Positions 1 through 50,299 of a stretch of DNA of 64,000 nt are shown one piece after another. The notes beneath the pieces were generated by a model that had not been told where the DNA came from, did no database searches, and was given only the letters and a program-made list of their open reading frames with translations. The stretch comes from Psammoneis japonica (lineage: Eukaryota). The DNA lies in contig QPGO01000021.1 in assembly GCA_008632985.1 (NCBI GenBank), positions 186,001-250,000 on the forward strand, given 5' to 3'. The translations under genes were made by a program, and so were the position numbers. Position 1 is the first letter of the stretch. The number at the start of each line of letters is the position of its first letter.

Positions 1-1100
1 GACAAGAGAGTTTCTCAAAACTGCCTTTCCATTTTCCTTGCACTCATGTCAGGCCAAAACATTTGCTGCAGTCCTTTGGGATTGAACACACACAGCATGG
101 CAGATGACACTGATGACAAAGTGGAGGCCTTGGAGGGTTGAGCACTGTTCTTTCAATGCCTTGGTCATCATGCATTTAAACTCTTCATCAGAGTCTGGCA
201 GATGAGCAATTGAAGCCTTGGCAGAGTCCTCAGGATTGTGAGACCTGTGGAAGTGTCTCACAGCAGCAAAGCACATGGAGAGGAAAGATGGCTGTCTGTG
301 GGAAAGGGGCATCAGAAATGACATCTTGTTTGTCACAACATTGAAAAACAGGGCAAAAATGGAGACAGAAGGTCTGAACATGCATTGTCATGGCAACCTG
401 ATCCTGTGGCACAACTTGCATCACAGCATTGCAAAGATTGGCATGGTTCAAACAAATCAAAGAGTTTTGAGGGGAACTCTCACATTCAGGAGCTTCATCC
501 ATGATTGGTCCAACCTGCACAAGGTCATCAGCAAGCATTGCTCAAGGGACAAGGAGATCCTGCTGAATGACCTCATGATGGATGCATGCAACAGCTTCAC
601 TCTTGAGATCTGGGGGCACAAATTCATTGACAAAGATCTTGGGAGCAGGCACCTCATCCAGACATGGGACATTCAGGTGACAGTGGGCATTGGGCAAGTG
701 ACCATGCTGGTTGAATTAACCAGAGTCAACTTGATCTTGGTCGACCTGGTTGCGTGGGAAAAAAATCAATTTCCTGCGCAGAGCTCTGACATGCATCATA
801 GAGTGCGATGGTCGTGCTGATCACAAATCAAGTGAGAAAAACAGCTGTGACATTGACGACGATTCATCAGAGAATCGCAGCCAACACACTCAAAAGACAT
901 CGAAATGTGCTTGTCAAGAGGAAAGGTGACAGCACACTGCTGCTCATGACCCAACGAACTGCTGGCATCGGGACGATCTAACAACCTCAATTGGGACAAT
1001 GGTGCTCGTGCACTGGATCTGAGAGAAAGCAAGACAGAGAGATCATCGGATCTCTCCAACCCATCTACGCTGGTGTGTCTGTCAAGAGAGAGTGCACTCT
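1..1100. other. TpA- and CpG-depleted degenerate repeat remnant, family not identifiable
   Basis: Almost no TA dinucleotides; short overlapping Cys/His-rich ORFs in many frames; same composition as the transposon blocks elsewhere in the window. Confidence 0.45.
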
Positions 1101-1153
1101 CCAAGTCGGATGTCTGCCAGGATGAGATGGACATGGACAGGATTTCCCAAGGT

Positions 1154-3052
1154 TCACTCTTGGAGCACTTCTTGTGACTGCTTCAACCTTTTCTCAGGAG
1201 GCAAGAAAGGACTCTCGTCTTGGGCTGTAGTTGGAAGCGTCGAAGTTTCTGAAACTGATGATGACCAATTGATGGGATTCTGTCGGAGCAGCTCGTACGT
1301 AACACGAAGGATGTCCCGCTCCTCCACACGGGATGCGCCATTGCAGTCCTCCGTGACAAATTCATCTTCCAAAATTTCATCACCGTGTCTCTCGAAGACT
1401 GAATCGATGCACGTCAAGCAAAACTTGCGGTTCTCCCTGCACACATCAGGAGCCTTGGAAATCGCATCCACCAAGTTCATCATGTGGCTTCTCGTGTCCA
1501 CGCATCCAAACAATTTGCCACGGCCGGCTCGGTTGAGAAGGAGAGCCAACTCAATGTCGGGAACGAAGGTGCCAGTGCAGCAGTCTTGGCTTCCAAATGA
1601 CGCGTGGGAGCCATCATGTTCCAAGTGAACGTCACTGCAGAAATCTTGCATTTCAAGATGAAGTGGTGAAAAGTTCGACTTGACTGTAGAGTCGGATTTG
1701 AGCACAGCGCGAAAGGCGTTCTTTCCCTCAAATGCATTTCTGTTGCCACGAAGATCAAGAGTCTCCAAATTGTCGTTCCTCTTGAGTGATTCTGCAAGCT
1801 GACGGCAGGCTGTCTCACCCAAGCGATTGTGTGAAAGGTCAAGGACCTTGAGGGGAGAGTTTAGCTTCAATGCCTTCGTAACGGGCTTCATGGCGGCACC
1901 TTCTTCATCACAGAGCTTGAGACCGGGCAAGCGAAGCTCGACCAAAGTGCTGTTGACAGACAACATGGTGTCCAACGAATGAAGGAATCTGGCTTTCTGC
2001 GTTGTTTCGAATTGCTCGATGCGGACACTCGTGATGGTCTTGTTTGTCTTCAGACCGTTCAATGTGTCAACCCCAATTGGCTCATCTGCCCCTGCATCCT
2101 TGTCACTGTGCCTGTAAGAGAAACTGGTCAGGCTTGAACTGGCAACAGCCGACGAGAGCTTCTGTCCGTTTCCACCATGCAGACGACAGCTTGACAAGAA
2201 ACGTTCACAATCCCAAGAAACGAAAGCCCTGAAATCCACAGCAAGTTCACGAAGACTTGGATTGCAACAGAGCTTGGCCAAGGCCAAGGTTGAAAGTTTA
2301 AATTCGACTCTTCCAGAGGAGCTGAGCTCATCGGGACGGGGATGCAAATGAAGGACTCTTGGGTTTGGCGTTTCGCCCAATGACTCGACAAGCGAATTCA
2401 TGCTGAAATTCATCGTGTCACCCGAGCATTCAAACCCCATCATGTCATGTCCCCCAGATTCTATTTTTATTGTTGGTCCAAACTTGACAGCATGGAGAGA
2501 AGGATGTCGCCTCAACGTGTCACTGAAGGAAAACATGGAGTGCTTGCTGAAGCTTCGTCCCAAACTTGAGCCTTTGCGCATCTCAAATGACTCTAGTTGC
2601 ACAGCAATCCGAAGAACTTCGGCAAGGACTTCAATCGGGATCGTCGTAGATGTGACGAGGGTGTTGAGGTTTGGAAACAAAGACAGAGTCTTGCCAAAGT
2701 CCCACATCTTCTTCGCAGACGACACTTTACTGCAGAGAAACACTGCTCCGATTTGCTGTCGCCTCTCGCTCAGCTGCTTCAAGAACAGCTCAAAGTTTTC
2801 ATCATGCCCAGGAAGCACTGTCTTCTCCATGCTGCTGAAGAGATCTTTCTTTGTAAACTCTGTGTGGTTGTGAAACAACACCTGCGAAAGGGGAGCGACT
2901 GGGCGCGATGCTGCAAGCACTGCACTCGTGGCTTTCGAAACCGACACCGTCGTTTCGAGAGGTTCTGCTGGAGCTTCCATGATGTGGCTGGTCACAAGAG
3001 TTGTGGGTGCAACAAGAAGTTTGATCAATGACAGTGAACGCTTGCTGCTCAT
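1154..3052 (-). CDS. Leucine-rich repeat (RNI-like) protein, TpA-depleted, possibly decaying
   Basis: 632-aa ORF with LRR motifs (LKVLDLSHNRLG, LETLDLRGN, LVELRL); I count only 2 Tyr. Confidence 0.7.
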   Translation of the reverse strand: MSSKRSLSLIKLLVAPTTLVTSHIMEAPAEPLETTVSVSKATSAVLAASRPVAPLSQVLFHNHTEFTKKDLFSSMEKTVLPGHDENFELFLKQLSERRQQIGAVFLCSKVSSAKKMWDFGKTLSLFPNLNTLVTSTTIPIEVLAEVLRIAVQLESFEMRKGSSLGRSFSKHSMFSFSDTLRRHPSLHAVKFGPTIKIESGGHDMMGFECSGDTMNFSMNSLVESLGETPNPRVLHLHPRPDELSSSGRVEFKLSTLALAKLCCNPSLRELAVDFRAFVSWDCERFLSSCRLHGGNGQKLSSAVASSSLTSFSYRHSDKDAGADEPIGVDTLNGLKTNKTITSVRIEQFETTQKARFLHSLDTMLSVNSTLVELRLPGLKLCDEEGAAMKPVTKALKLNSPLKVLDLSHNRLGETACRQLAESLKRNDNLETLDLRGNRNAFEGKNAFRAVLKSDSTVKSNFSPLHLEMQDFCSDVHLEHDGSHASFGSQDCCTGTFVPDIELALLLNRAGRGKLFGCVDTRSHMMNLVDAISKAPDVCRENRKFCLTCIDSVFERHGDEILEDEFVTEDCNGASRVEERDILRVTYELLRQNPINWSSSVSETSTLPTTAQDESPFLPPEKRLKQSQEVLQE

Positions 3053-3111
3053 CGCTCATCGATTTATTCAAGAGAGCGAAGGGAAAACAATGATGTGATG
3101 ATGTGATTGCT

Positions 3112-3286
3112 TGAACAAATTACCCTGCAGTTGTTTGCTAGAGAGCAAAGTTATAGAAAACATTGCAACATCGTGCTGCCATTTCCAAGATTGTGACTAG
3201 ATCTCGGATGGAGTCTTCCCGTTCCGAATCGCCAAATGTGCAGTTCTAAATGCTAGTTCCGATGAGACCACATGGCAAATTCTTCA
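3112..3286 (-). repeat. 3' LTR (TpA-mutated copy)
   Basis: Aligns without gaps to 9858-10032 with 16 substitutions. Confidence 0.95.
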
Positions 3287-3297
3287 GTCCCCTCAAG
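3287..3297 (-). promoter_or_regulatory. Polypurine tract
   Basis: Minus strand TTGAGGGGAC directly precedes the 3' LTR. Confidence 0.65.
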
Positions 3298-3551
3298 TCG
3301 TTGAAGCAGACACTGAATCGGCTTGATCCAATTTACACTCCGACAGTTTTAGCCACAACTGTGTGACAAGGAAACCCTGACAACCTGCTGAAACCCAAAT
3401 TGGGAAAGGGTGCCGGTGTGACTGTGCCCCTCCAAGAAGCGCATGGAAGGAATGTGAGCCAACATGCCCGCTGGTGCGAGCTCCCATGCTCGCTGGATGT
3501 AAGGAGAAACAGAAAAAGGAGCAGTCGAAGGAGCGACTGTTCATTCTTCTT

Positions 3552-6500
3552 TCATCCTTTATCATCAAACATGTCGTGTAGTGTCACACCAATGAGGCCA
3601 TCTCGTTTGACACCACCGCACATGATCTTGGTCGCAAGATCAGCTGGATTGCATTCCGATCTAATGTGTCCGGCAAGGGACTCACCCACAGCTGCCGACT
3701 CCCTGACGGCATGGCAGCACACAGAGTTAGACTTCTTCTTCAAAGTCGACTCTGGGCTTTGGGTGTTGTGGACAACTGCCATGTTGTCCCCATGAATGCA
3801 TGATGGTCCGCTGAGCGGGACTCCCATCATCCTGAGTTTGTGCCTTGGGCCTCGCAAAGCTTCCATGCCTTGCTTCACAGCCACAAACTCAGCACCAAAG
3901 ACTGAAGTCTCAATGGTGCTCTGGCGCTTGGAGAACCAGGCGACTGGTGCCATGTTCAAATGGACAAAATGACCAGTGCGGGAGCGTCTCGTCACTTTGT
4001 CATTCGCATGATCTGAATCTACGAATGGGCGTGGATCAATGTCCTTGCCCAGAGCTTCTGGTGCATTCGGTGGAATCGCCTCCTCTACGTTCCCGTAAAA
4101 TGCCTGCCAATCGCATTCCTTAAAGTCAGACATGTGACATCCGGGCACGTCGGATCGAATGCTGACGTTGCGCCATGTCTGTTCTTGAGGCATCCACGCA
4201 CATGCAGGACAGCGTCGAGATGACCTTCTCCAGGCATGGCGAGGAATGAGGCGAGTTCGGATGTCTCCACTGTGAGGTCGACTCGTCCAAGTTCCACTGT
4301 CCAGCGCAGGACTCCCACCTGCGACTGGTAAAATCAAGCCTGCTCTGCATCGAGCTTTGGCGCAATGTCGAGTTCCGGTCGACAGTCGCACGGAAACGGG
4401 GCCGTTGCCTTGCGTGGCAACGTCCATCCAGGAGCAGTCTCATCTGGACACCCCTCGACATTCTTGATGGCCTGTTGGATGTGCTTGCTGGAGCTCATGC
4501 TCCATGCGCAGACACCATTCAGCATTTGCACTTCACGGATTTTCGCCCCGAGGTGCATTTCAGGGTCACCGATGGATCCGGGTTTCATCTTGAAGCACCG
4601 GTCCAATTCCTTGAGCGCTGACGTAGCGTCGTGGTGTGCCATGAGCACGTCGTCTGCACACAACAGTGCATGGGCACAGCATCAGAATGCATCATCCGGT
4701 CGGACCTGTGCCTTCATCCACACATCTGGATCAGCCAGACACGGTTCCCACCCACGTGCAAGATGCCAAGTGGTTCCTGAAGGATGCACCTGCACTCTTC
4801 AATCCGTACAATGCGCGCTTGACTGTGGCACGCTTCCCAGCATTGGGTCCAAACTCAGGTCCTAGAGTTGCAGTGATCTTCTTGCTGTTAGGTGCGGTCA
4901 CACAGGCATTCTCAATGTCCGCAGCCTTAACCTCCAAGTCATTTAGAGCCGCCAGAGCAAAGGCAATCCTTGCACTTTCGCGGGAGATGACGCTTGCATG
5001 CGTCAGAGTCGCTGGAGGTTCAGCGGTGTGTCCCCCTGCAACATGACGAGCCTTCCGCTTGAAGTCTTGTAGTTTGACATCGAAGACCAAGTGGCAGCGA
5101 ACATGCTGGTAACCCACGAGCTCCTCGTCATCGTCGACAATCTCAAAGGCTTTTGAAACAACATCGATCTCCTTGTCTGTGGCATCCTGCCACAAGCGGT
5201 TGCCGTCAGCCTTGTCGATCTCGACTGCCTCTTCATGGGTCTTGGGAATGCGCACCCCGCACTTATGAGTGCGCTTGTGATGTCACTTGTTCACAGCGGC
5301 TACAATCTGCTGACGTTTCTTGAAGGTAAAGGGAACCCACCAGGCAAAAGCTGGCTCGTCCTCTGTGGATCTGGCCCTGGCACACTCTGCCATTTCCACT
5401 GGGTTGGATTCCTTCAAGTCAGACAGTCGTTCCCAAGATGTGGATCCGTCTTTCCATTGTGCGCAAAGATGCCAGCCTTTGGCAGTCTTGCGCATGGATC
5501 GACGTCCCCTGCTGTCTTGGATGAAGGCATCCTCCTTCTTGATTGTATGTCCGTCAGTCTTGTGATCAACGATTGCATCTAGTGACAAGCACTGGTTGCC
5601 TTCATTGTCGCACTGCGCAAACATGTTCTCAGCGATGACATTCGCCGCGAATTCTGCTTCCTGTCCATCAGGAAACTCGACCTCACACACACGAGTGTCA
5701 AGTGTCGGGTTTGGGTTGGCCCGTCCGGCAGGTGTGCCATCCGGATTGAGCTTGCGTCGCTTCACTGCCCCAGTCTGTTCCATGTCCCCGTGGGGCAGCA
5801 GCACTTCTGCATTGACACATTGATCGTAGGCTTCGTCTGGGGTGTCACCCTCATCGGAGGCACTGGACGGAACATCCTGTTCCTCGTCATCCTCGTGCAG
5901 TTCGAAGGTGGGAGCAATTGCGTCAGGGTCATCAAAGTCCCCGACGGTCACACCCGGGCCCAGCTTGACCTCTGTCAACCTGTCAAACTTTTCACGCAAT
6001 GCAAGGTGCGTCTTGTGTTCCTGCTCCTCGGGCGTTAGTGCCCTGCAAGACGAGCGATGGACGACCTGTCTGTTCTCCTTGAGCATCTTGGCCATCACAG
6101 CTGGGCCTGCATCCCTGCTCGGGCCCGGATGTCGCCCCAGGACTTCCTTGTCCTCGGGAAATGAGACTGCCGTGTCTCGAAACATGATCCAGTCGTGCCG
6201 GCCGAGTTCACATGTGTGCGAGATGTCAGCCGTCTGACCGGACACTGCGGTTTCTGGGACTTCACCGTCAAGCTCATGGATGTTTCGAGCGGTGTTAGAC
6301 CCAATGAGGCCTTCCAGTTCCAGGCAATCATCCCACAAGCATTTTGGGGCCTGTGACTTAACCATCTTACGCCCAACGCCTCGCTTGAGTTCGCGAATTG
6401 CGCCCTCTGCGGTGTTAGACCAAGGGGCATGTGGTTCAGTTTGTCTTGCATGGCAATCGGCCTCCCTGGCTTTCTTGCTAAATTGCCCCATTGTCTCTTC

Positions 6501-7676
6501 TCTCACCCCGTCTGCTGGCATGGTGTGGGGCACGCCTTCTTGCGCGAAGAGCAACGACAACGCCTCGTGCGCTGGACGTTTTGACTTCAATGGACAAGCG
6601 CGCACCCATCCATTGGACATTGCGAACACTTGCGTGCACACATTCCCTCGCCTGGACTTGACAGAGGAGAACATGGTGTTGGAGCACATCTCCTTTGAGA
6701 CACGCCTGCATCGCAGTTGTCGGTCATTGGTGCGGAAACGTCGTGACAGCGTAGGATGTAGAACTGTCCTGGCTCCACGCTGTGTCGCAACCTTGAGAGT
6801 GTTCTGAGCATCCTTGAGGCTGATGGACCAGTTCTCGGCCAAACGTTCAGCGTCAACCTTGAAGCTGCGCTTTGTCGTCTTGAGCGAAGACAGTTTCATG
6901 GATGCCAGCAGCAAACGGTCATTGCATGCATTGGAAACATCACGCAACGGCTGATTCCGCAGAGCGTCTGAGGTCTCTTGAGCTGCAGTGCGTGAGAGCT
7001 TCGTGCTCATAATGTGCACATGAGGACGCGCATCATCCCCGGTCTCATGCACTCTGCCAAGAGCATCTGTCATGGCTTCTTCCCCAGCGTGGAAGTCGGA
7101 GGAGGCGGGGTCCCATTCAGGGGACTCATGCGTGAGTTCGCACACGCTCCCGTCTTGGGCCGCATCCTCATGTTGAGCTAAAGTCGGGACACTGGAGGGG
7201 AAGCAGCTCGAGACTCCCTCCAGGTCTAAAGGTGCAGTTAATGAAGTGCCATTGGCGTCCTTGGCGACGATCGCATGTTCCTTGTCGTTGGGCTTTGTCA
7301 GCAGAAACTTCGGTTTTAATGAAAGTTCCACGTCATTCAGCCACAACTGCATTGGACACAGCAAGTTGTGCTCAAGGTGTGGCACATGGACTGCTTGGTG
7401 GACAACCAAGACGTGTGGGTGGCCCGTCTGAGGATCTGTGTCAGTGGCAGCTCCACTGACTGTACGCAGGCGCTTGCTGGCACCCAAAGTTGGGTCGCAC
7501 CCTTCCATGTCTGCTGGCCTGTCATGGTCAAGCAAAATTAAAGCGTGCTTGCCTGGTGCGCTCATGTCTGCATGACTGTCAACATCCGTGCGAGACTCTT
7601 CTTGCGACGGTCCTCCAACCTTTGTCTGGGTCAAGCATGAGGTCTGCAACGGACTGAGCCGCATGATGGCCACCAT
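3552..7676 (-). pseudogene. pol: Copia pol (protease, integrase, RT, RNase H), frameshifted
   Basis: DSHAD protease motif; TEPHAPWSNTAEGAIRELK integrase; KARHVAGGH, ADIENAC, KRALYGLKSAG and LLCADD (YVDD) RT; FVDSDHANDKVTRRSRTG and NPADLATK RNase H; spread over ORFs 5283-7676, 4731-5255, 4334-4663, 4085-4318 and 3552-4427. Confidence 0.92.
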
Positions 7677-7682
7677 TGGCTG

Positions 7683-9172
7683 TCACTTCCTGTGGCATCC
7701 AGCCTTGGGGACATGCTTGCGAGCAGCCTCGCGAATCAACGCCTTGTTGTTTCGGTTCCATTCCTGCTTGGCAGCCGGAGGCTTCATTGGCTCTTCAGTC
7801 TCAGATTCACCACCACCTTCATCGGATGAATCGTCCATTTGAGCTGAGATGGCCGCGACCGTCTTGGTCAGAGCTTTGATCTGCTTGGCGTTGCCGGCCG
7901 TCGTGGCCTTGCCACTCTTTGTGTTGTCACGTGTGTCGCGCAGCGACTTGAGCTTCTTCCCAGCCTGGGGAGAAAGCTTGCTGCACTCTTTGGGAGGGTG
8001 GCACTCATCCTCCACGTCATCGGCATGAATGATGGTTTCTCGTTTGCACTTCCCAGCCTTGAGAGCCGCAACACGAAGACGTTTCGCGTCGTTGTCCGGC
8101 TTGGACTGCTTGATAAAATCCTTAAATGGGACAATGCAAGCATCAAAATCGTTGCGCAACGTTGTGCTGGCCACAATCTGCGTCTTGACTGAGTCAAGCG
8201 ACGAGTCCTTGACACTTGCAAGGAGGTGGCGGACCTTGGATCGTGCATCGATCCCTGCATAACCACACTCGGTAAGCCGTCCAGAATCGCGTGTTGTTCG
8301 ACATGAACTCGCACGCAGCGCTCGAAATTCCAGTTGCGCTTTTCCCCGTGGCAGGACAGACTGGCGAGCTTCCTTTCGGCAGCGTTCGCCAGGTCATCTG
8401 CATTGTTGGGGCCCAAGAAATGATTGCAGAGGTTCAGGCAGGCCGTCCTGCCGTCCTGGCGCCTCTGGGCTGGCTTGACATAAGCCCAACTAGCATGTTC
8501 ACGCGTGATGCCGGCTGTGATCTCCCACACTTTGATGTTGTCGGCCGTGAACGTCTCGGCAGGTTGAGGGTTGTTCCCAGCAGTGAGATGGGGAGCCCTC
8601 GCGATCATCTCCTCGATCGGGTCGTTGTAGTTGGTGGCCGGGTCGTCGGCCTCGGCGGTTGCTTCCTGGTTCTCGCGGATGACGTGCGACAGTGGCATCT
8701 TCGTTTCGCCTCGGCATGCCCGCAGATGCTCCTGAATCGACTCGATCGTCTTCGGCCAGTCCTTCTTGATGATCGTCGGCAGTGTTTCGGGCAGTTCGTA
8801 GGTCTCTTCCGTGGGACAGAAGTGGCGGTGGCCTTGCACTCGTGCAAGGTTGATGTCAACAGCTCGCAACGTTCGCGACATGCGCTCGCAGTGACGAGCC
8901 GCATGCGCGGTGAGCTTGAGATTCATCTCGGTGCGCAAAGGAACTGACGTCCCTAGGTTGGGTTGGACGTTCCCACCTGCCGGCGGATTGCCTGCCGCAG
9001 CCCCTCCTGGGCGACGAATGTCCTCACATGAGGTCTCGACCTCGTGGTCGTCGAGGTGATGCAGTTCATCGACTGAGTCGATTCCCTGCTCATCGGTTAA
9101 AGCCGCGGCTGCCTGCGCGGTAAACCCCAGTCAGGTGCAGGCAGCACGCATCGCTGCTGCGACTGCTGCCAT
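7683..9172 (-). pseudogene. gag: Copia gag, frameshifted
   Basis: ORFs 7868-8938 and 7683-8174 with CoDi gag-like segments (LSHVIRE, LSCHGEKRNWNFE); lies upstream of pol; probable ATG at 9172. Confidence 0.75.
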
Positions 9173-9840
9173 GGTTGATGGTTACAAACGGTGTGTTTTA
9201 CGTGTCTCGCAAACTTTTGTGTGGTTGTGCACGAAAAGTGAGTGAGGTGCGCGAACTTCGTATCGCTTTTTCGCCGTTGGATAAAAGTAATCGTTATAAC
9301 TACGATCAACGTGTCTAGAGATAGCGGTTTATATTTAATCCTCCTGGATTAATATCTCTGATGGGATTCACATATAACGGCTACTCTTACAATCTACGTG
9401 ATCGTATAATGCATGTGCCGATCATCGGCGACGTGCTCGTTCCCTGGTCTACATTGACCAATAGTGAGGTTAAATATATAATTTATTAATTATATCGCGT
9501 TTACATATTCAACTTGGATATGTATATATGCTCACTCGGCGATTTCAAATCGCCACGCAGTTGCCTCCGAGATAACTTCGGTATGGAAATGGCGTCCCAG
9601 ATCCAATTTTGCGCTCTGTGTCCGCGTATTTACGCTCATAAAACACATCAGGACAGTCGATACTTTTGTTATCCATAAGTATTACGGCCGAACTAGCCCT
9701 GGGAGTTACATACTCGTCAAGCACGAACGTCGTCTCACGTTCGTCGATGTTTTCATGTCATCTCTGACAAGTTGGAACGAATGGTCGTATTGCGAGTCGT
9801 TCGCAAGCGTTGCAATCATTACCACTGTCGTTACGTACGG

Positions 9841-9857
9841 CGATGGCTCTGATAAAG
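9841..9857 (-). promoter_or_regulatory. Primer-binding site, tRNA-iMet-like
   Basis: Minus strand CTTTATCAGAGCCATCG follows the 5' LTR; shares TATCAGAGCC with canonical TGGTATCAGAGCC. Confidence 0.65.
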
Positions 9858-10032
9858 TGAATAAATTACCCTGTAGTCGCTTGCTAGAGAGTAAAGTTAT
9901 AGAAAACGTTGTAACATCGTGCTACTATTTCTAAGATTGTGACTAGATCTCGGATGGAGTCTTCCCGTTCCGAATCGCCAAATATACAGTTCTAAATACT
10001 AATTCCGATAAGACCACATGGTAAATTCTTCA
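9858..10032 (-). repeat. 5' LTR (TpA-retaining copy)
   Basis: TGAATAAATT...TTCTTCA, direct repeat of 3112-3286. Confidence 0.95.
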
Positions 10033-10394
10033 TGCTGTCGATCGCGGCGCAAGATAGAAAAGCATCGACAAGTAAGTACAGTACTTGGATGGCGTAGAAT
10101 TCTACGGAGCTCTTATGCTTTTCTTTTTTAGCTTGCTGTGCTAAGTGTGCGGTCCGATCCGCCCGCCCGCCCGCCTCGCCTAATCCGTCCCGCATTTCAA
10201 ATTGCTACTGTACACTTTAGGAAGTTCTAAGTAGTTTACGACAACTTAGTCAACAGCTCAGGTCTAAAACAAGTTACTTGTTCCATAATATAGCTGGAGT
10301 CATGACTTCTTATGCGCCCCTGTGGTCCCCAGAGAGAGAGAACCGACAACGAGTGAATCCTAGCCCAGAGTAGTTCCAAACCACGCTGGCATGC

Positions 10395-13479: not shown

Positions 13480-13664
13480 TCTGCTGCAACTAACAGATCT
13501 TATGGCCTCTATAGAATACGACTCAGTCTATGATGTGACGTGAAGGCAAGTCTACGAATACAAACGAGAGCAACAGCAACCGCAAGGCCGATGATGTGTC
13601 ATTTCCAGTTTTTCTTTCTGCCGGCGACGCACTCCTGAGCGATTTGAATTCCACGCGCGCTTCA

Positions 13665-14767
13665 GGCATTTTTTTACCTGGTGTGGGCAGCAGGTTTTGA
13701 TTAACTCGACTCAAGCGAAGCGAGAGTCAACTCGCAAAAGTAACCCGGATGTTAAAGTGGGGAGAACAAACAACTCTGCACAAGCACCCATCACCAAAGG
13801 CATCTCCTCTCAAAAGGACAAGGAACAACATTTGAAGCAAAGTGCAACATGCAGACAAGGAGCTTGTGCCAAAACAGAGTGTCTGGCCACAGCACCAGTG
13901 GCTGCAACAAAAGGCAAAGCAGCAAGAAGCAAAAAAGATGCACAGAGAGCCAGAGGAAGAGGGGCAAGAGCCGGGGTGCAGAGAGGAGAGTGGTGTGTGC
14001 TGTGCACTGAAGAACTGGGTGGAAGGGGTGAATAAAATGCCAAAAAGGGAAAATTGTGAGACTGTTTTGGGCACCAAAAGCAAGCAGCAGTTGAGAGATG
14101 CTCTGCAGCGTGTTGTGCTGTGACCCAGCAGCAAGAGAGCTGGCTCCTGCCCCCCAGCTGGCCCCAGCCAAGAAGGCCGAAGGTTGTCCGCAGCCAAGCA
14201 GCACCCCACAAAGTGTTTTCAATGCCATTTTGGGGTGTGTGACAGCTGCGCCAGTTGAGATTTGCCTCGCAATTTGGTGCAAAACAAAGTGTGGCGTGCA
14301 GACAAGGAGAGTTTGTGCAGAACCAGTGTGCCCAGCTGCAGCTCTGATGGCTGCAAGAGGCAAAGCAAAAGAAGCCAGGATGGCACCACATGCCAGCTCT
14401 CATAGAGAGCCCTGCTGCATGCTGCATCTTGAAGAAACAGGTGGAAGGGATGAACAAGATGCCAAAGAGAAACTTGTGAGACGGCTTTGGGTGCCAAAAG
14501 CACAAGCAGCTGAGATGCTCTACACAGCACAACCCAGCAAGAGCTCATTGCCACCACAGCAAGCCAGCTGAGAAACTCTGCATGTTGTCCATGACCAAGC
14601 AACACCTTGCAAACTGCAAAGTGTTCTCAGCACCACTTTGGGGTTTGGCCCAGTTGTTGTTGAGAGCTGCCTCACAAAGAACTGCTGCTTGGATGCTTGT
14701 TGCAGATCTGGAAAATCATCTCTTTGCAGCTTTGGCAAGGAGCTCCCCAGCATGATGATCATGAACA

Positions 14768-14801
<34 letters not shown>

Positions 14802-15452
14802 AAAAGCAGTGCTCTGTGTGTTGGAGCAGCAAGAAGCCAGAGCAACAACAAAAAGAAAAGACAAAAAGCACAGACAAGTTCACAGGCATGCAGCATCTGA
14901 GGTGGCCAGAAATGATCTCCGGCACATGCCAAAGCCCAAGGTGAGCAGCAGCAGAAAGCAGAAGCAGGGCAAGGAAACAAAGGCTTGCTTTTGTGAGGAT
15001 GGCATGAGCAAAGTCAAGAAGCCACAGTGCCAAGCTTTTCGGATGAATTGCACAATTTTTGTCAAGAAATCAAAAACAAACAGGAAAATCGGCGAAAGCG
15101 TCATTGAGACATCATGCCGTAAAGTGAGACACCGGCGGCACGCGTCATTGTGGTGCTGCAGTTTGTTGCGTGGTGCCTGCGAAGCACACATGTCCATCGA
15201 TGCATGTCGGCAATCCAAACTGAAAATTGACCCATCACCTTTCTGTCTTTCTTCACAATTGTGGATGTCACTTTGTGGCGTGCATGGGGGAGATTTGCAG
15301 CACACATAGAAGCAGAATGACCCCACAACATCAGCAGCTCTTTATGTGCACTACAAACTTTATAGCGCACATGGGGCTGCTTGCTTAAAGGATGACCGTC
15401 TGCGTCAGCAACGTCGTCATGTACGCTGACCCACACCATTTGACGACCTGCC
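13665..15452. mobile_element. Non-autonomous TIR element, copy 1 of tandem dimer (Merlin-like)
   Basis: Ends GGCA-N10-TGGTGTGGG and CCCACACCA-N10-TGCC; dimer flanked by 8-bp TSD GCGCTTCA (13657-13664, 17252-17259); superfamily inferred from termini only. Confidence 0.8.
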
Positions 15453-15459
15453 TTCGCTG

Positions 15460-17251
15460 GGCATTTTTTCACCTGGTGTGGGCAGCAGGTTTTGATTAAC
15501 TCGACTCGAGCGAAGCGAGAGTCAACTTGCAAAAGCAACCCGGATGTCAAAGTGGGGAGAACAAACAACTCTGCACAAGCACCCATCACCAAAGGCATCT
15601 CCTCTCAAAAGGACAAGGAACAACATTTGAAGCAAAGTGCAACATGCAGACAAGGAGCTTGTGCCAAAACAGAGTGTCTGGCCACAGCACCAGTGGCTGC
15701 AACAAAAGGCAAAGCAGCAAGAAGCAAAAAAGATGCACAGAGAGCCAGAAGAGAAGAGGGGCAAGAGCCGGGGTGCAGAGAGGAGAGTGGTGTGTGCTGT
15801 GCACTGAAGAACTGGGTGGAAGCGGTGAATGAAATGCCAAAAAGGGAAAATTGTGAGACTGTTTTGGGCACCAAAAGCAAGCAGCAGTTGAGAGATGCTC
15901 TGCAGCGTGTTGTGCTGTGACCCAGCAGCAAGAGAGCTGGCTGCTGCCCCCCAGCTGGCCCCAGCCAAGAAGGCCGAAGGTTGTCCGCAGCCAAGCAGCC
16001 CCCCCCCAAAGTGTTTTCAATGCCATTTTGGGGTGTGTGACAGCTGCGCCAGTTGAGATTTGCCTCGCAATTTGGTGCAAAACAAAGTGTGGCGTGCAGA
16101 CAAGGAGAGTTTGTGCAGAACCAGTGTGTCCAGCTACAGCTCTGATGGCTGCAAGAGGCAAAGCAAAAGAAGCCAGGATGGCACCACATGCCAGCTCTCA
16201 CAGAGAGCCCTGCTGCATGCTGCATCTTGAAGAAACAGGTGGAAGGGATGAACAAGATGCCAAAAGAGAAACTTGTGAGACGGCTTTGGGTGCCAAAAGC
16301 ACAAGCAGCTGAGATGCTCTACACAGCACAACCCAGCAAGAGCTCATTGCCACCACAGCAAGCCAGCTGAGAAACTCTGCATGTTGTCCATGACCAAGCA
16401 ACACCTTGCAAGCTGCAAAGTGTTCTCAGCACCACTTTGGGGTTTGGCCCAGTTGTTGTTGAGAGCTGCCTCACAAAGAACTGCTGCTTTGATGCTTGTT
16501 GCAGATCTGGAAAATCATCTCTTTGCAGCTTTGGCAAGGAGCTCCCCAGCATGATGATCATGAACAAAAGCAGCAGCAGCAGCAGCAGCAGCAGCAAAAA
16601 AGCAGTGCTCTGTGTGTTGGAGCAGCAAGAAGCCAGAGCAACAACAAAAAGAAAAGACAAAAAGCACAGACAAGTTCACAGGCATGCAGCATCTGAGGTG
16701 GCCAGAAATGATCTCCAGCACGTGCCAAAGCCCAAGGTGAGCAGCAGCAGAAAGCAGAAGCAGGGCAAGGAAACAAAGGCTTGCTTTTGTGAGGATGGCA
16801 TGAGCAAAGTCAAGAAGCCACAGCGCCAAGCTTTTCGGATGAATTGCACAATTTTTGTTAAGAAATCAAAAACAAACAGGAAAATCGGCGAAAGCGTCAT
16901 TGAGACATCATGCCGTAAAGTGAGACACCGGCGGCACGCATCATTGTGGTGCTGCAGTTTGTTGCGTGGTGCCTGCGAAGCATACATATCCATCGATGTA
17001 TGTCGGTAATCCAAACTGAAAATTGACCCATTACCTTTCTGTCTTTCTTCATAATTGTGGATGTCACTTTATAGCGTACATAGGGGAGATTTGTAGCGTA
17101 CATAGAAGCAGAATGACCCTATAACGTCAGCAGCTCTTTATGTACGCTATAAACTTTATAGCGTACATAGGGCTACTTACTTAAAGGATGACCGTCTGCG
17201 TCAGCAACGTCGTTATGTTGTACGCTAACCCACACCATTTGACGACCTGCC
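15460..17251. mobile_element. Non-autonomous TIR element, copy 2 of tandem dimer (Merlin-like)
   Basis: About 1.79-kb direct repeat of 13665-15452, separated by a 7-nt spacer TTCGCTG. Confidence 0.8.
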
Positions 17252-21815: not shown

Positions 21816-22095
21816 GCTGCGTTAAATTCTACGTGTTTGTACCAGGAAAATGTACCTCCAACCTATCCGGCAGGCGTGAGTAATATTTTATGTACGAGAA
21901 AGAGTTCGTTGGGGCAGGCGAACAACATCACTCTACGATGCGACTGGTACAAAATCTACGTAAATGCACAGACACGCTCTGGAGCATGTCTGTGCAAATT
22001 CGAGCTCGTAAATAATAAGCAGGGATATATAATTAAAAACAACAGGATAGGTAGGGCTACGTAGACTCCGCCGTAGGCTTCAATAATTCGTCCTC

Positions 22096-23667
22096 GTTCA
22101 ATCAGCGTCGGATTAGTTGCCGGCCGGCCCCCCATTTCCAGTATGATTGTACATCGGCTACGGGGACTTCCAGTTTTTGTATGCTAAATTTTACGGGGCG
22201 CAGCTTTTCGAAATTTTTGATATTTCTGAACACGGAACAGCGCAAACCGTAATGACACTCGAGAGTCTAGAGTAGCTACTCCTACTTTCTAGAGTACTAC
22301 TTCTAGAGTGGCTACTACGAGTAGAGAGGAGAGCCATCATACTACTTCTACCGTATTTGTGCCAAGCTATGCCCTCTCACCCGATATGTAGGAACAGTAG
22401 AGAGAGCACAGCACTGCACCGGCAGCAGCTGCCCCACCGCGCAAGACTCTTCGGGCTCTCTACTCTACTGGTAAACTTAGGGACTCTACACAATAGAGAA
22501 AGCCCTCTCTACTGCGGCTAGAGAGTAGCTCTATGTTGTGCATAGAGTAGCTACTACCGGCACCGGTTCATGCAGCAGGTCTCTAGTAGAGTAGAGAGGC
22601 ACGGTGCTCTCTCTCCAGTGGTAGAGACTACTGGCAGGAGATAGAGTAGCGTATGGTAGGAGAACCACAAGAACAAATAATGAGTTGATAAAAAGTCATC
22701 ATCTTAATCTTATTTGGTTTTTTGAGCGCACAGAAGAGAGCGGCAGATCAAGCCAAAATTGACAAGAATAAGAGGAGCAAGACAAAGCAGACATACACCA
22801 TTATGACATGCCTTACGAAGCATTGGCAGCACCGATAACTCTGATAGATGTTGATTTTGAAAGAGTCAACACGGTGCATGGTGCTGTTTTTTTGGACAAC
22901 GATTACATGAGTAACTGACATTCGCGGGGAGAACAGAGTCGCAACATTGGATGGCTTGCCTTGGTTTCCAAGCCTTGTTTTACAATTGTAAAGACACTGC
23001 TGTATCAGATACAGGGATGATGTGATGCACAAGCTTTTGAACGTCGTGGTAATGACTTTCTTGACTTCTGCATGGAGAATCTAATGGGAGACGAGGCGTT
23101 GCGACGCTCCTTGAAAACAGCCCAAGAGAATGGCAGCAAACGGATGACCATTGCGTCACTGAAGTACAAGTGGAAGAACATTGTAAAAAAATTCGTCCAT
23201 GCAAGAGCGAAAGCCTAATACCAAAAATACAGAATGCGAACTGCAGATCGTAGAGCGAAGGGGGGTGCAAAAGCAGCGTTCAGAACGGAACTCATGGTAA
23301 AATCTGAAAAAGCGACAAAAGAGCACGCATCAAAGAAGAGAACGGCAGATCAAGCCAACATTGACAATAACAAGAGGAGCAAGAAAAAGCAGGCATACAC
23401 CATTACGACATACCTTACAACGTATAGGTATGGATAGCATCGATAACACCGATAGATGTTGATTGTTGATTTTTGAAAAGATGCAGTAGGGGTTCCTACT
23501 GTACCTACTGTAACACGGTGCATGGTGCAGATTTGGATCCATGCGTTGAAAAAGCTCCGCCCCGTAAAATTTAGCATACAATAATTCGAAGTCTCCGTAG
23601 AGGCTGTAGGAATATACTGGAAGTGGGAGGCCGGCCGGCAACTACAGTAATCCGACGCTGATTGAAC
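22096..23667. mobile_element. Degenerate non-autonomous TIR element
   Basis: About 110-bp imperfect inverted repeats (GTTCAATCAGCGTCGGATTA..., TGTATGCTAAATTTTACGGGGCG); internal direct repeat about 22735-22880 versus 23335-23530; no clear TSD. Confidence 0.65.
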
Positions 23668-23685: not shown

Positions 23686-25930
23686 CACCCCTGTGGTAGG
23701 GGAGAATATGGTGATGTCATGGTTACGTGGCAGATTTATACCTTATCCATTATATTTTTATATAAATGTACTCACATTAATTTATGCATTTGTACACAAA
23801 TGCTAATAGTAACAGGAAAAATCCTGAACCATATTCTCCCCTATCATAAAACTCTGACCTCCAAACTCCGAGGGTACGGAAACGCACTTTTGGCAGCTCT
23901 TTTCTTCGCACAAAAAACACGCGTTTTGACGACTCGACCATGATGATGCCTCGTGGTGCTTCCCCATCGCCTTCCCAGGATGCCGGTCCTACTGACACTG
24001 TTGCCAATGATGCTGATACAACAGGCAATGCCATTGTTCCGGTTCTCGTGGGTGTGACACATGCAAAATGAGATGCTACAAACTCACACTGTTGTTTGCA
24101 CGCCGCACTGCCTCCCACAGATGCTGTCACGAATTCCAATGCCGCACTTGCGTTTCGGGCCCCTAGCATGCCCGATGCTGTTACTCCTGCCCTCATTGCC
24201 ACAGGCACTGTTGACACTGTTGTTGTCTTTTGCCAATGACGTCCACAATTAAATGCCAACATCTCACACTTTTTTTTTCTCGCCGCGCCGCATCCCAAAG
24301 ACACTGTAACGAATGCAGACTCCGCACCTGCGTTTTGGTCCACTGGCATGCCCGAGACTGTTGCTCCTGCCATTGCTGCCGCAGGTGCTGTTGATGCTGT
24401 CATTGTCTTTTGCCAATGACGTCCACAATGAAATGCCAACAACTCACACTTTTTTCATTCTCGCCCCACCGCCTCCCAAAGACACTGTCACGAATTAAAA
24501 CACCGCACCTGCGTTTCGGTCCACTGGCATGCCCGAGACTGTTGCTTTTGCCCTTGATGACATGGGTGCTGTTGACACTGTTGTTGTTTTTGCTTTGGAA
24601 GGAGGATGATGGATGACGGCGGACCAGGAAACCCTCACTGCGGCCTGCTGATGGACGAGTGTTGGTGTTGTGGCTCTTGTGCTTTCTATGTTTGTTCATG
24701 GTTTTCCTCTTTGTTAGCTCTCGATTGTAGTCTGACCTTTAAAATGTACAGACATGTGATGCAGCTCTCTGTAAATTGGAAACCTGATGACACTCTGATG
24801 GCAGGCATGCTTTCACAGTTTTTTAGTTGGACAGGTTGGCGAACTAGTCTTTGTTTGCAGGCGACTTGGCAAGGTTTCAAGTGAGTGGTGCATGTGACTT
24901 GGACACTGCTCCATTTGCCAGGACCAGGTCATTGTCTGCAATTCCATGAGACGCCACTCTCGCGGTTTGAAATCCACACATGATGTGCAACATGCTTTTT
25001 TGTAAGTTGCTAAAAAAGAGGCCGGTGGCAACGTGCTTTTGGCAAACACTCACTGTGTTCATCACTGTCAGACCTTCTGAGCTGGTGCCACATTGATGGC
25101 CATGCTGCTGCTTTGCATGCCGGCACCTTCTCTGCCCGCACTCCAATGGCTACGTCCACCTTCATGTTGCTGCGGTTCATCTTGACACCTGTTGTTGGCT
25201 CCGATTGGTTCCGCTGGGCTGTGGGTGAGTCTCAATCACCTCCAGATGGAGGAGCTTCTTCTTGGGAATCATCCTGAGAAACTCTGTTGCCGTGCCTCCT
25301 AGATGCTCCTCTGCCATGCCCACGCCCATGCAAGGAGCATCGACCAGTTCATTGGTGCTCGTTGATCCCATGCCTTCGTTGTCCCAACCAGCATCGCCTC
25401 TGCCGCCTCCAGGCCTGCTTGCATCCACAGCAGTCAGATCACGAGTGGGATTGTTTCTTGTTGTTGTTTTGTTGTGCTGGATTGTAGTGCTCAATGACAA
25501 ATGGCGGCAATGTCGTCCACCGTCAATTTTGGATCCGGTGAAAATGGGCCCAAACTTCAGGATCGCAAATCTGCTGTGTTTGGGTTACGACAGCAGGTGT
25601 GATGGCACCGGCCAACACAGGAGGGACTGTCGCATCAGATGTGGCAGGCGTAGATATGTCAGGTGGTGCAGGGGATGAAGAACGGGAGGTCGTCATGGTC
25701 GAGTCGTCAAAACGCGTGATGTTTTGGTGTGTGCGCAGTCTTCCAAAAAGTGCGTTTCTTTTCCGTACCCCCGGATTTTGGAGGTCAGAGTTTTAGGGGA
25801 GCTGTGGAATAAGGATTTTTACTTAAGGAATATACACATTCATGTGCATATTAACATTGAAACTCAACGGACGGCGAAGCCGTGCGCGCGCAACCACGAA
25901 CACACGCACAGCTCCCCTACCACAGGGGTG
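23686..25930. mobile_element. Non-autonomous TIR element, Mutator-like
   Basis: Perfect 19-bp TIR CACCCCTGTGGTAGGGGAG; long imperfect subterminal inverted repeats (about 23850-23950 versus 25685-25795); 9-bp flanks GCCCTATCT and GGCCTATCT differ by one base. Confidence 0.75.
24060..24595. repeat. About 180-bp tandem repeat, about 3 copies
   Basis: TTGTCTTTTGCCAATGACGTCCACAAT recurs at a 180-bp offset; GCATGCCCGA occurs three times. Confidence 0.8.
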
Positions 25931-27527: not shown

Positions 27528-30500
27528 CCGTAGAATTCTACGTGTTTTGAGTACTGGTAAGCGTACCTCCGACAGAAATCTGAATCGGCACAAAGATGAC
27601 ATCATGAGCCTTTCACCTGTTGTTTCAGCAGCAGGTAAAGGAGCATCGAGAATCTGTAACAAACCATCAGAAGAAGCACAGCATCAGCAAACGACAATGC
27701 CAGAGACCAGAAGCGCCACCAAGTGTTGGCGCATTGCTGAAGGGCCAATCATTCCTCCGCTCCATTTGCCGTCGAGTGTCGTTGGTGAAATCCAGGACAC
27801 TTGGATCTGGCATCGCTTGTTTGCATCGGTGCGCCTGCAACAGTCAATTGAAAAAAGCAAGCACACAAACATCATCACTGGCTTTGGAGCACCATTGATT
27901 TTTGCACTGCAGGCGGATCCGTTGCGTCAAGAATCACAGACTGTCAACTTGAAGCATTGCTCCGCAAAAGTCATGCTGTTCAACGCTGTCGCTTTCTCAA
28001 CCTCATCGGCTGCACGCAAACAACAGGGAACAGATTCAAAGCGCTTTGTGGTTCTTTGTTGCTGCCAGAGATTGGCATTTGAAGGAGAATCAAAATGTCC
28101 TGATGAGAAAGAAACCAAGTGGCCATGCATTGAGCAAACTGAATCTCGACTTTGTTTTGCCCTTGCTCTCGTCCATGCCACAGATTGCGCCAATGCCACT
28201 GCTGCAAGACAACTCACTCAGACTCTCCCTCATCAAGATCTGGAAGCAACAGCACAATTTTGCCTGTTGTTGTCGGAACTGCACAAACCTGCCGTGGACA
28301 TTGCGATTGCATCATTGCGAGTGTGCCACCCAAAGACGACTTGTTGTGGGCAATGAGCTTTTCTCATTGCAAGAAATGCAAGAAATGCACCTGTTGTGGC
28401 TTCAAGGATGGACATCCTGTTAAGGAAGACTGCACTCATTGCATGGTTCAATGTTGCCAACCGTGTGATGGACATGAGGACAAATGTCCCAACCTCATCA
28501 TGTGATGTGCTTGTGCATGTCCTGTGGCTTGTCAGAATGTGGAAAATTGTCACCAAGGAATGTTTTGTGATGGTTGCTGTGATCATTGTTGTCAAATCAA
28601 TGAAGGCTGTGATGACAGCAGCAGCACATGCAAAAGTTGTGGGGGCACCTTCTGCATGAAATGCCGTGAATCCAATCAGCATGTTTGTTCGCCTTTGAGC
28701 GAGGCCGAGCAAAATGATTGAGTCTTGCGTTCTTTGATGCACCAACTCTGAAGTGAATCCATTTCTGAACTGCATTCTCCAGTGGCAGGATCTGCAAACT
28801 CTCTAGATTGCAGGGCACTCAAGTGGCAGTGTGTGTGGCTGTCTCTTAGTCGCATCTGCTGTGCCACAGCCTTTTGCTCTGCCTGGCATTGAGCCAGACA
28901 CAGAAAATCATCTTGAAAGAGCGTGAGCTTGAACAGCACCTGCTGTGCTCTCAACAGCCACCAATGGGTTGTGATGGGCTTCAGTGGCCCACAAATCTCT
29001 GGCTGGAGTTGAGCCAGCAACTGCCACCGGCCAGATCCAGAGCAGCCATTGAAAGAAAATGACCATGTTCTGTGGCACTTGCAAGCACTCTGGCAAAAGA
29101 AAAAGATCAAGTGGCCAGGGGGCAAAGCAAAAAGAGCATCATGCTCTGGCAGAGGTTTGAAAATCTCATCCGGGCCACCCCCTTCCTGTGGTGCATGAGC
29201 ACAATTGAATGTCTTTGAGCTGGAAAGACTGAAATCAGCTCACTTGTTTGAGAATGAATTCTGCCAAAAGGACTTGATGTGTGAATGACGCAGATCTGTC
29301 TGCCGCAATCTGTTCCCATGGGTGGTCAGGGGATGGCAGCAATCAACACAAATCATCAAGCCAGCTGGAGCTGCAATGGTTGTTGCAATGTGCATTGGCA
29401 ACAGGTGTGCAACAGCAATTGGCAACTGCTGCAGTCTGCTCAAGTGGGGACATCACGTGGTGCTTCATCATGTGCATGGCTCTGCTTGCTGTGGCAGTGT
29501 GCCTTGAAGCAACCTGCTGCACAATCACTCCATGATTGGGGTGGTGGAAGAAGTGGCATGTGAGAATGCCCAGGCTCATGCCAATGAGTCATGGGAAGAG
29601 CTTGCGAGTCAGATGTGCTGCTGGTGGTTGACTTGAGTTCAAAAGCAGCAACATGAGCCAGATGAAGTGGGGTCAAGTTCAGCACAAAGTGTGTGGTGCA
29701 AGAGCATTGCACACAAGTGCCACTCATTGCAACTCTGCAAAAACTGTCAGCTGCAATCAAGTTGCATGTGCTGCACATTGCTGGGTTGGCCACAATTTGC
29801 AGTTGAAGCGGATTTGTCAGCACCTGCAATTGCATGCAGCCACATTGTCAACCGCAACCTGTGATGCAATTTCTGGCAACTTTGGTTCTTGTGCCAACCC
29901 CTGTGAGAGTGGTGGCTTTCAGAGGCATGATGACAATGTGTCAAAAACACACCAAAGTCCTCACACAACAATGGCCAATTTTCTATGATGATTGCTTCAC
30001 AACCCCACAACTGCGGACAATTGATTTGTTTTTTGTCTCATTTGAAAAGGCAAGCTTTTGCCCCTCTCTCGCAACTCAATCTGGGCATCCTCACTTGAGC
30101 TGTGGGAAAGAAGACAACAGATGCAAAACTCCCTTTTAAAGCACTGCACAAGAACTGCTTCACACAGCATTCAACAGCAAGACAGTGCCAGAGACCAGAA
30201 GTGCTGCCAAGTGTTGGCTTTTTGTTGATGCTGATGGGCCAATCAATTCTTCAAAAAAAGTGTGCTGCTGTGGCGTGGTGTTTGTGTTTGGTGCAAGATT
30301 GGTGAAGCCCCGCTGAACTTCTGTTTGAACTGCCTTCTTGACATTGTCTGGAAGCTTGGTCACTTGTGAATGTGAGTGTCAAGGATGATCCTGCAGTCCT
30401 TTGACAGCTGGGCTTTTTGCAGCATCTAGACACACAAGGGGGCTTGCTCCAGCACTCTGCTTTGCCGCCTGCCATGCCAGCTCAAGCTTGCTCTGCAGAG

Positions 30501-31400
30501 GGGAGAGGGGGCAGTGCACCAGCCAAGCTCCCTGGAGCAACATCTTTTGCATCTGATGGTTTTGAGAAGACTTTTTGCATTGGAAATAAATTGTGAACAT
30601 TGTCAGCTGTTGCTGCTTCCTGGGCAACAAATGTGTCAACAATCCTGATGGTCTTCACGAGAGGCAGAGAGTGAGCTGGATGACAAACCCAGCAGAAACT
30701 TAAAAAAGGTGAGAGCTGCTGCACACACCTGTGACAGCTCTTGTCTCAAGAAAGAGTTGGGAGAAATTGTGGTTGCACACTTGCACAACAATCTCTTGTG
30801 TCATCATTTCATGGACAGCGCAACAAAAGTTGAGCAGTTCTTGGTCGAGGGGTGCTCGCATGGCTCCTTTTTAAGGGAGACAAAGAGCCCAGCAGACAAG
30901 AGCATGAGGGACAGCAGAAGAAGGCTGGAAAGAGGCTGTTAAAGCAGACAAGCAGAAGGGGTGCACAATGCAGTGCACAGGGCATTTCAAGGAGGGGGCG
31001 CATCTGTGAACGAAGTTGTGGGGATGAGTGGAGAGGGTGTGACATGTGCATTGTTGCACCGGAGAGTCTGGTGAGTCATCCACTGAAAATGAGAGGAGGA
31101 GTGATGCATGCTGCCAAAGTGATTGTTGGTGAGTTGGCTCCAGGCAAAGTCAGCAGAGGGAAGGAGAAAGGGAGGAGAGGTGGTCGTCGAGAGGAAAAGG
31201 CGCGCAGAGCATGGAGCTCCACACCAGAGTCTTGCAAAAGGCGGGGGTGGGTGAGGGCCAGGGAGTTTTGGGTTGGGAGCAGGCGGTAGAAAGCAAAGAA
31301 CTAAAGAGGAAGCGGTGAAAGAAGCCAAGACCGCCCAAATCTTCCAGTTCCAAAAGGAATGCGACAGCTCCTGAGAACAGCTTGGAACACAACATGACAC
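27528..31400. mobile_element. Heavily mutated transposon-derived block
   Basis: TA nearly absent; internal dispersed repeat GCCAGAGACCAGAAG near 27700 and 30187; left end CCCGTAGAATTCTACGTGTTTT resembles the reverse complement of 55970-55995; boundaries approximate. Confidence 0.55.
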
Positions 31401-50270: not shown

Positions 50271-50299
50271 GATTTCTTCTGTGTTTGTCTCACAATGAG

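Follow-up and report, generated by a model that had tools for sequence, protein, structure and literature searches.

Repeat-induced point mutation (RIP) in ascomycete fungi is a heritable, DNA-level burst of transitions at a single dinucleotide. It strikes transposon copies individually and riddles them with missense changes, leaves a strong dinucleotide signature and can leak into adjoining single-copy DNA. These features are shared by a 64-kb stretch of the genome of the diatom Psammoneis japonica (assembly GCA_008632985.1, contig QPGO01000021.1, positions 186,001-250,000; this whole stretch is hereafter the window, and its coordinates are used throughout), where a Ty1/copia-type long terminal repeat (LTR) retrotransposon on the minus strand has lost TA dinucleotides over most of its length. 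The chemistry, on the other hand, is not that of RIP. RIP converts C:G to T:A, mostly CpA to TpA, and so enriches TA, whereas the change found in the window has the opposite direction, A:T to G:C at TpA, which erases TA and enriches CA and TG. RIP also makes stop codons, which the process in the window cannot do, and its hosts are fungi, whereas the host here is a diatom. The process in the window is best read as RIP-like in role and opposite in chemistry.

Two further systems invite comparison. A-to-I mRNA editing by the fungal tRNA adenosine deaminase complex Tad2-Tad3-Ame1 provides the sole documented deaminase rule that matches TpA targeting, since 96.7% of the edited adenines in N. crassa are preceded by T (PMC13431901). 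This editing acts on RNA hairpins, is non-heritable, uses one strand and favours TTAGGA with G at +1 (PMC13431901), whereas the changes in the window are fixed in DNA and fall on both strands; their preference at +1 runs T>C>G>A, and TTAA is the most resistant context. Hyperediting of retroelements by ADAR or APOBEC likewise produces clustered transitions that disable copies. It is, however, strand-specific and confined to the element, whereas in the window both strands are changed, the two LTRs differ and the flank is affected. A relative of the fungal RID protein, DNMT4, exists in diatoms and is described as being without known function (PMC9998398). No description of TpA to TpG/CpA hypermutation, in diatoms or elsewhere, was found in the full-text literature searched, which lacked subscription journals and supplements. 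The passages on mutation, transition and dinucleotide in the paper on the diatom CoDi retrotransposons contain no such pattern (PMC2806351), and the terms RIP, hypermutation and deamination do not occur in a 2025 preprint on diatom transposons. Taken together, the TA loss and the change in neighbouring DNA look like a repeat-silencing mutation process of an undescribed kind.

The element is a diatom Ty1/copia-type retrotransposon. Its LTRs are 175-bp direct repeats with 91% identity and the ends TGAA..TTCA (TG..CA), located at 3112-3286 (3' LTR) and 9858-10032 (5' LTR). A 4-bp target site duplication (TSD), TGCT, is intact at 3108-3111 on the left and at 10033-10036 on the right; a TSD of 4 bp has also been reported for the diatom retrotransposon Blackbeard (PMC2806351). 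On the minus strand, the 5' LTR is followed by a 5' internal region (9231-9857), by upstream gag-like open reading frames (ORFs) without a family match (7683-9130, tyrosine content 0.4-0.7%) and by a 797-aa ORF that probably represents the protease/integrase part of pol (5283-7676) and ends at a TGA (5285-5283). Downstream of these are the N-terminal part of the reverse transcriptase (RT; 4731-5255), its catalytic part in a shifted frame (4334-4753) and the RNase H end of pol (3552-4145), which is 63-72% identical to relatives. Sixty-two full-length relatives of 1250-1450 aa, which served as the comparison set for pol, align to positions 7583-3564 in three frame segments. No Pfam family was detected in the 797-aa ORF upstream of the RT, which aligns to residues 1-800 of the relatives. 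The domain PF07727 is present in 119 of the 120 relatives listed, and those that are named come from the diatom Fragilaria crotonensis. The N-terminal RT part gave a weak match to RVT_2 (E = 9.2e-7), whose 29.1 bits lie below the cut-off of 31.6. Both this match, together with the relatives bearing PF07727, and the direct LTRs with TG..CA ends and a TSD place the element in Ty1/copia. The diatom CoDi retrotransposons are alike in having relatives of this length with PF07727 and short LTRs with TG..CA ends, whereas the copy in the window is dead. Two short proteins in ENA assemblies that are related to the integrase region, P0143 (tyrosine 0.31%) and P0246 (0.68%), may be similarly mutated copies from this or another genome.

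The observed/expected ratio (o/e) of TA was 0.06-0.24 per kb over positions 1-9000 and then 1.01 at 9001-10000. Seven such tracts of TA loss were found in the window at 400-bp resolution, with edges sharp to about 60 bp. When the tracts were pooled (28.3 kb), the o/e values were 0.10 for TA, 1.68 for CA/TG, 1.26 for GC and 0.43 for CG, compared with 0.62, 1.15, 1.07 and 0.98, respectively, in the remaining 35.7 kb; all other dinucleotides differed between the tracts and the outside by no more than 0.13. Tract 1 (1-9230), in which CG is mildly reduced save at 1-800, has its right edge within about 60 bp of 9200-9261. It runs about 3.1 kb past the 3' LTR into the flank, of which about 2.3 kb is apparently single-copy, and it omits the 5' ~800 bp of the element, so that it ends inside it. 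TA is normal to high in the 5' internal region, which lies outside the tract. Thus the domain edges are sharp and independent of the ends of the element. The process affects a tract of the chromosome and is not a property of the element, which corrects the reading given in an earlier note on this DNA. Near 9230, the edge sits about 60 bp upstream of an ATG (9172-9170); it may be a chromatin boundary, or the 5' end of the element may later have been converted from an unmutated copy.

Because tract 1 ends inside the element, its two LTRs form a natural experiment. Of 16 differences between them, 12 have TA in the 5' LTR where the 3' LTR has TG (5) or CA (7). Two more are CG against TG/CA and two are of other kinds; the reverse sense did not occur. 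The 3' LTR has therefore lost 12 of 19 TA and retains 7, whereas the 5' LTR is unmutated (0 of 19 lost). The CG counts are 6 and 8, respectively.

A second comparison is provided by a tandem duplication of 1.8 kb with 96.9% identity (13665-15452 and 15460-17251), whose inner junction is TA-mutated and whose outer ends are spared. The segment 15005-15452, which lies within a tract, differs from its paralogue outside, 16800-17251, at 28 places in 448 bp. Twenty-three of these are TA to TG/CA, five are CG-type and none is of another kind; the segment contains 8 TA as opposed to 31 (23 of 31 lost) and 21 CG as opposed to 24. In a control pair outside the tracts, only 17 of 135 differences were TA-type. 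With the differences that involve neither TA nor CG taken as background, the rate per TA site is estimated to be about two orders of magnitude above it. The TG/CA outcomes agree between the duplicated cores, 13761-15004 and 15556-16799, both of which are CG-poor too, and this indicates that mutation of the core preceded the duplication. Conversion of the inner island, on the other hand, appears to have come after it, and at least two episodes would therefore have occurred. Position between tracts seems to have counted for more than being duplicated.

The consequences for pol are most apparent in tyrosine, whose codons begin with TA. The earlier note had read the catalytic region of the RT as a YVDD changed to CADD by loss of TA. 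The codons that it quoted are present on the minus strand at 4681-4649 (TGC TGT GCC CAT GCA CTG TTG TGT GCA GAC GAC, i.e., CCAHALLCADD, with CADD at 4660-4649), and at the successive positions the relatives have Y (61/62), Y (58/62), A, Y (62/62), V/C/I, L, L, Y (62/62), V (58/62), D and D. CADD is thus derived from YVDD, with tyrosine in all 62 relatives at the position of the cysteine and valine in 58 at that of the alanine. Tyrosine is likewise the residue of the relatives in ENAC (59/62), MHLGAK (62/62), SSSKHI (61/62) and, in the RNase H end, VCCHAVRE (61/62) and SCIHGDN (44/62 for the first tyrosine of YIYGDN and 60/62 for the second). Two of the motifs that it cited fared less well: in RTGHFVH the relatives are mixed (F 42 and Y 20 at the first position, Y 35 and F 27 at the second), so that the proposed loss holds in part, and TEPHAPW is not diagnostic, as some relatives carry histidine there themselves (Y 32, H 23).

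The 797-aa ORF is, as had been noted, nearly devoid of tyrosine (0.1%), and the aligned pol contains 5 tyrosines in 1378 codons, compared with a mean of 3.7% in the relatives. At 709 conserved positions, defined by the same residue in at least 70% of the relatives, 26 of the 29 tyrosines had changed, as against 115 of the 680 other residues (Fisher p = 1.7e-16). Three conserved tyrosines were kept; the others became cysteine (14), histidine (11) or aspartate (1). Conserved histidine was retained at 17 of 17 positions and conserved cysteine at 8 of 9. When codon changes were tabulated, one-step TA to TG/CA was the largest class, with 52 of the 141 changed conserved positions, although this class was counted generously, the ancestral codon being picked in favour of TA among synonymous codons (tyrosine is unambiguous). 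The remainder comprised 18 one-step CG to TG/CA changes, 14 other transitions, 37 transversions, 18 multi-step changes and 2 with two TA/CG steps. The conserved tyrosines of the 62 relatives, the LTR pair and the tandem paralogues agree that TA is ancestral and that TG and CA are derived, as the earlier note had proposed. The copia family is not TA-poor by nature, because all 80 related metagenome loci had a TA o/e of 0.45-0.97 and none was TA-depleted, in a sample that leans to intact copies because one of the two search patterns contained tyrosine. The process is therefore not a trait of the copia family, and it may be restricted to a lineage.

TA to TG/CA never yields a stop codon and abolishes TAA and TAG. 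Its missense routes are Tyr to Cys/His, GTA Val to Ala, ATA Ile to Thr/Met and changes across codon borders (xxT|Axx to xxT|Gxx). It therefore kills by missense and leaves long tyrosine-free ORFs. The view that the element was disabled through missense at catalytic residues accordingly stands as far as YVDD reads CADD, but the element also has two frameshifts and three in-frame stops. Sequencing reads from other copies have 8 extra bases near 4745-4760 and 1 near 4135-4148, the sites of the two frameshifts. The stops are all TGA (5285-5283, 4684-4682 and 4336-4334). At the first, relatives have arginine and other copies CG, and at the last other copies also carry CG; these two stops are therefore attributable to CGA to TGA by CpG decay.

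CpG to TpG/CpA decay is a second, separate and slower process. The o/e of CG, 0.43 in the tracts against 0.98 outside, falls to 0.04-0.2 in the older tracts. As in methylated transposons elsewhere, such decay operates here (methylation itself is presumed), but it does not account for the TA loss. It is also the slower of the two, as the young parts have lost TA and kept CG (21 against 24 in the tandem pair).

The survival of TA in the tracts relative to the outside depended on the flanking bases. It was 0.68 for TTAA, 0.23 for CTAG and for CTAA/TTAG, 0.18 for GTAA/TTAC, 0.12 for ATAA/TTAT and for CTAC/GTAG, 0.07 for ATAG/CTAT, 0.06 for GTAC, 0.02 for ATAC/GTAT and 0 for ATAT. The mixed contexts are reproduced by an additive per-strand model, in which the A of each strand is hit independently at a rate that depends on its 3' neighbour (T>C>G>A); it was fitted by hand and assumes an original 4-mer composition of the tracts like that of the outside. 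Both strands were used equally at the tyrosine codons (Cys 14, His 11; 14 runs observed against 13.3 expected). Runs of TG or CA were not significant at the tyrosine positions, nor, as counted by hand, in the LTR and tandem pairs. The 5' base gave no clear signal on the outcome at tyrosine codons (pyrimidine, Cys 4 and His 3; purine, Cys 10 and His 8).

The change thus runs from TA to TG or CA, targets TpA near-exclusively, uses the two strands equally and has outcomes specific to each copy. We consider that these observations are most probably explained, with a probability of roughly 0.7, by post-insertion hypermutation of chromosomal DNA, TpA to TpG/CpA on both strands, within sharply bounded, non-genic, repeat-bearing domains. 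The element would have inserted first, and an A:T to G:C transition would then have struck the A of either strand of the palindromic TA. The lesion may be an enzymatic deamination of adenine (A to I, read as G) at 5'-TA, with a preference for A before T or C. Targeting would depend on silent chromatin, or on a repeat-recognition signal able to spread into adjacent DNA, and the role would be the inactivation of transposons. Slower CpG decay follows the loss of TA.

The alternative that fares best, though we regard it as improbable, is that the changes are a by-product of base modification. A modified T or A at TpA in silent chromatin, such as an oxidised thymine or a methylated adenine, would mispair, and TA to CA/TG would accrue gradually. 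Such a process would suit sharp-edged domains that ignore the ends of the element, the later filling-in of a 550-bp island between two tracts, and the association of older tracts with CpG decay, by which methylated silent DNA is usually marked; TA being palindromic, lesions of T and of A would also leave the same record. A gradual process is, however, difficult to reconcile with a 448-bp segment from which 23 of 31 TA are gone with no other non-CpG change, or with an LTR that lost 12 of 19 TA with 2 other changes. It would have to run far faster than methyl-CpG decay has done there (CG 21 against 24 in the tandem segment and 6 against 8 in the LTRs), which is more like an enzyme-driven burst. 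Nor does it fit a TA-normal island that has stayed untouched in a young tandem repeat. This repeat is a 2.6-kb tandem duplication (56147-58779 and 58764-61396) of 99.7% identity, with 5 differences between the copies; in each copy, a part that is fully depleted of TA and CG is joined to a TA-normal one of about 780 bp.

Editing before integration, in which element RNA or cDNA is deaminated by an ADAR/ADAT-like or APOBEC-like enzyme and then integrated, is largely refuted. Hyperedited retroelement copies do occur in animals, and the TG/CA outcomes differ among the copies of this family. In fungi, mRNA is edited by an adenosine deaminase of the tRNA type under a strict 5'-T rule (PMC13431901). 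Editing of this kind would affect one strand, be confined to the element and leave its LTRs alike, and none of these was observed. The LTRs of a single insertion with an intact TSD are unlike each other (12 against 0 of 19 TA lost), and the tract, which stops inside the element, reaches about 3.1 kb past the 3' LTR and into apparently single-copy flank. Moreover, sense (Cys 14) and antisense (His 11) outcomes are intermixed, and a tandem repeat that is not a retroelement shows the same change.

A sequencing or assembly artefact, i.e., miscalls at modified bases or a chimera of copies, is very improbable in view of the read data. In one public run, X1, 56% of 783 31-mers sampled from a stretch that is 83% tract were found, whereas next to none was found in runs X2 and X3, and no RNA data set was listed as containing the stretch. 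Among the 1097 aligned contigs from the X1 reads (about 60x), 219 were at least 99% alike to the window. The summed contig depth was 349-1202 across the element as against 60-72 in the right flank, which corresponds to roughly 6-20 related copies. Mis-joins are made possible by this copy number, the window contains an N gap, and the other 44% of the sampled 31-mers are absent from X1. On the other hand, contigs of accurate reads at about 60x do contain 56% of them, and other copies in the reads show like changes. Transitions make up 458 of the 556 variable places among the contigs, and four adjacent pairs among the 40 variable places listed are TG<->CA swaps, which indicates that one ancestral TA was resolved independently in different copies. 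At ten further places of these 40 the window has TG or CA where other copies carry CG. The 4-bp TSD matches on the two sides, which makes a chimera formed from two insertions less likely; in addition, the seven tracts adjoin ordinary genes at sharp edges, and the changes fit codon-level expectations. The left flank appears single-copy, because a 2394-base contig of depth 64 (60 in the unique right flank) runs leftwards from 3216 into TA-poor DNA that includes a tyrosine-poor ORF resembling leucine-rich repeats (LRR).

Finally, the protein alignment refutes the opposite direction, with the TA-rich copies mutated by a classical RIP-like CpA to TpA change, and likewise the view of the tracts as foreign DNA or as DNA selected to avoid TA. 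Taken alone, the comparisons between paralogues are symmetric, and 16800-17251 is somewhat TA-richer (31 in 452 bp) than its neighbours (13-14 per ~450 bp), but 62 relatives from other sources have tyrosine at the Cys/His positions of the window and never the reverse, the tract values are the outliers while the outside DNA and 80 related loci are ordinary, and the tracts hold paralogues of DNA outside them.

Several observations weigh against post-insertion hypermutation of repeat-bearing domains. The evidence base is one 64-kb window and one read set, which may be the assembly's own sample and was examined as contigs, which drop rare variants. The missing 44% of 31-mers count here as well, and at the 40 places listed the base of the window was present in none of the X1 contigs aligned there. 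T to C from a thymine lesion is indistinguishable from A to G on the opposite strand, and the context preference judged by outcome is weak, with the changed A before a pyrimidine at 17 and before a purine at 9 of 26 asymmetric paralogue sites. Five of the seven tracts are without content identifiable as transposon. As to the confinement of RIP to duplicates, the copia family is multi-copy, but an apparently single-copy flank was hit, so that repeat targeting is not strictly established; only the inner one of the tandem paralogues was hit; and the TA-normal island at 58001-58779, between tracts in the young 99.7% pair, is untouched, which speaks against a simple duplication trigger. Still more tentative, and in our estimation somewhat likelier to be wrong than right, is the wider proposal that a mutator serving genome defence exists in diatoms, or in this lineage at the least, and deaminates DNA adenine at 5'-TA on both strands of silenced domains. 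It would be a naturally occurring adenine editor of DNA, a mirror of the fungal RIP chemistry, and would erase TAA, TAG and tyrosine codons from transposons and co-caught DNA.

Beyond tract 1, the composition of the tracts varies. Tract 2 (13600-16800) lies within the 1.8-kb tandem duplication and has a TA- and CG-poor core, 15005-15452 being TA-poor only. Tract 3 (24000-25600) combines TA loss with mild CG loss, and tract 4 (27600-31200) has lost both. In tract 5 (49200-55600), the most strongly depleted of the seven, TA and CG are nearly gone; it contains a copia RNase H relic at 51855-52135 on the plus strand, beside the N gap at 52195-52377. Tracts 6 (56000-58300) and 7 (58800-60800) lie in copies 1 and 2, respectively, of the 99.7% tandem duplication. 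Apart from that relic, tblastn with 40 copia relatives detected nothing in the tracts other than tract 1. Pfam domains were detected in 13 ORFs, every one of them outside the tracts and with a tyrosine content of 1.4-4.4%; these domains include DEAD helicase, C2, GST, CRAL/TRIO, JmjC, mTERF, Der GTPase, kinase, HSF and methyltransferases. In-tract ORFs have 0-1.1% tyrosine, and Pfam searches of them gave no match above the cut-off in 24 and then in 70 ORFs, with three weak matches taken as chance. The stop triplets on both strands number 231 TAA and TAG against 1219 TGA in the tracts and 1383 against 1310 outside, and the scarcity of TAA and TAG in the tracts is the reason that long ORFs accumulate there on both strands.

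Some further features of the window were observed. Positions 1-800 contain 3 TA and 3 CG in 800 bp, whereas 800-9230 has lost TA only; 1-800 is probably an older mutated segment adjoining a younger one. TA o/e is near 1, above the outside-tract value of 0.62, at 9261-9700, which abuts the tract edge within the element, and at 22001-22400 and 43201-44000. In tract 1, an intact 632-aa ORF (1154-3052, minus strand) has weak RNI-type LRRs and 0.3% tyrosine and is apparently single-copy by contig depth. Its relatives are 9 distant RNI-type LRR matches, none of which exceeds 46% identity or covers more than 50% of the query, and it may be a host gene caught in a mutated domain. Outside the tracts, the best named matches of the Der-type GTPase ORF are in Ditylum, Thalassiosira and Skeletonema (at most 69% identity), and two Methyltransf_24 ORFs with normal tyrosine content, at 47631-48521 and 61381-62337 on the plus strand, lie on an 855-bp repeat with 82.6% identity.

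If it holds genome-wide, the process would be the first A:T to G:C hypermutation directed at repeats or heterochromatin. It would also be the first system resembling RIP to come from outside the fungi, and from a lineage dominant in marine primary production. A natural enzyme that acts on DNA adenine (or thymine) with a simple TpA rule would be suggested. We know of no such natural enzyme, and directed evolution of a tRNA deaminase was needed to engineer adenine base editors. Annotation would be affected as well, by long tyrosine-free ORFs on both strands and by transposons that escape profile searches. Finally, fast TA loss followed by slow CpG loss would constitute a built-in clock with which the silencing of single loci could be dated.

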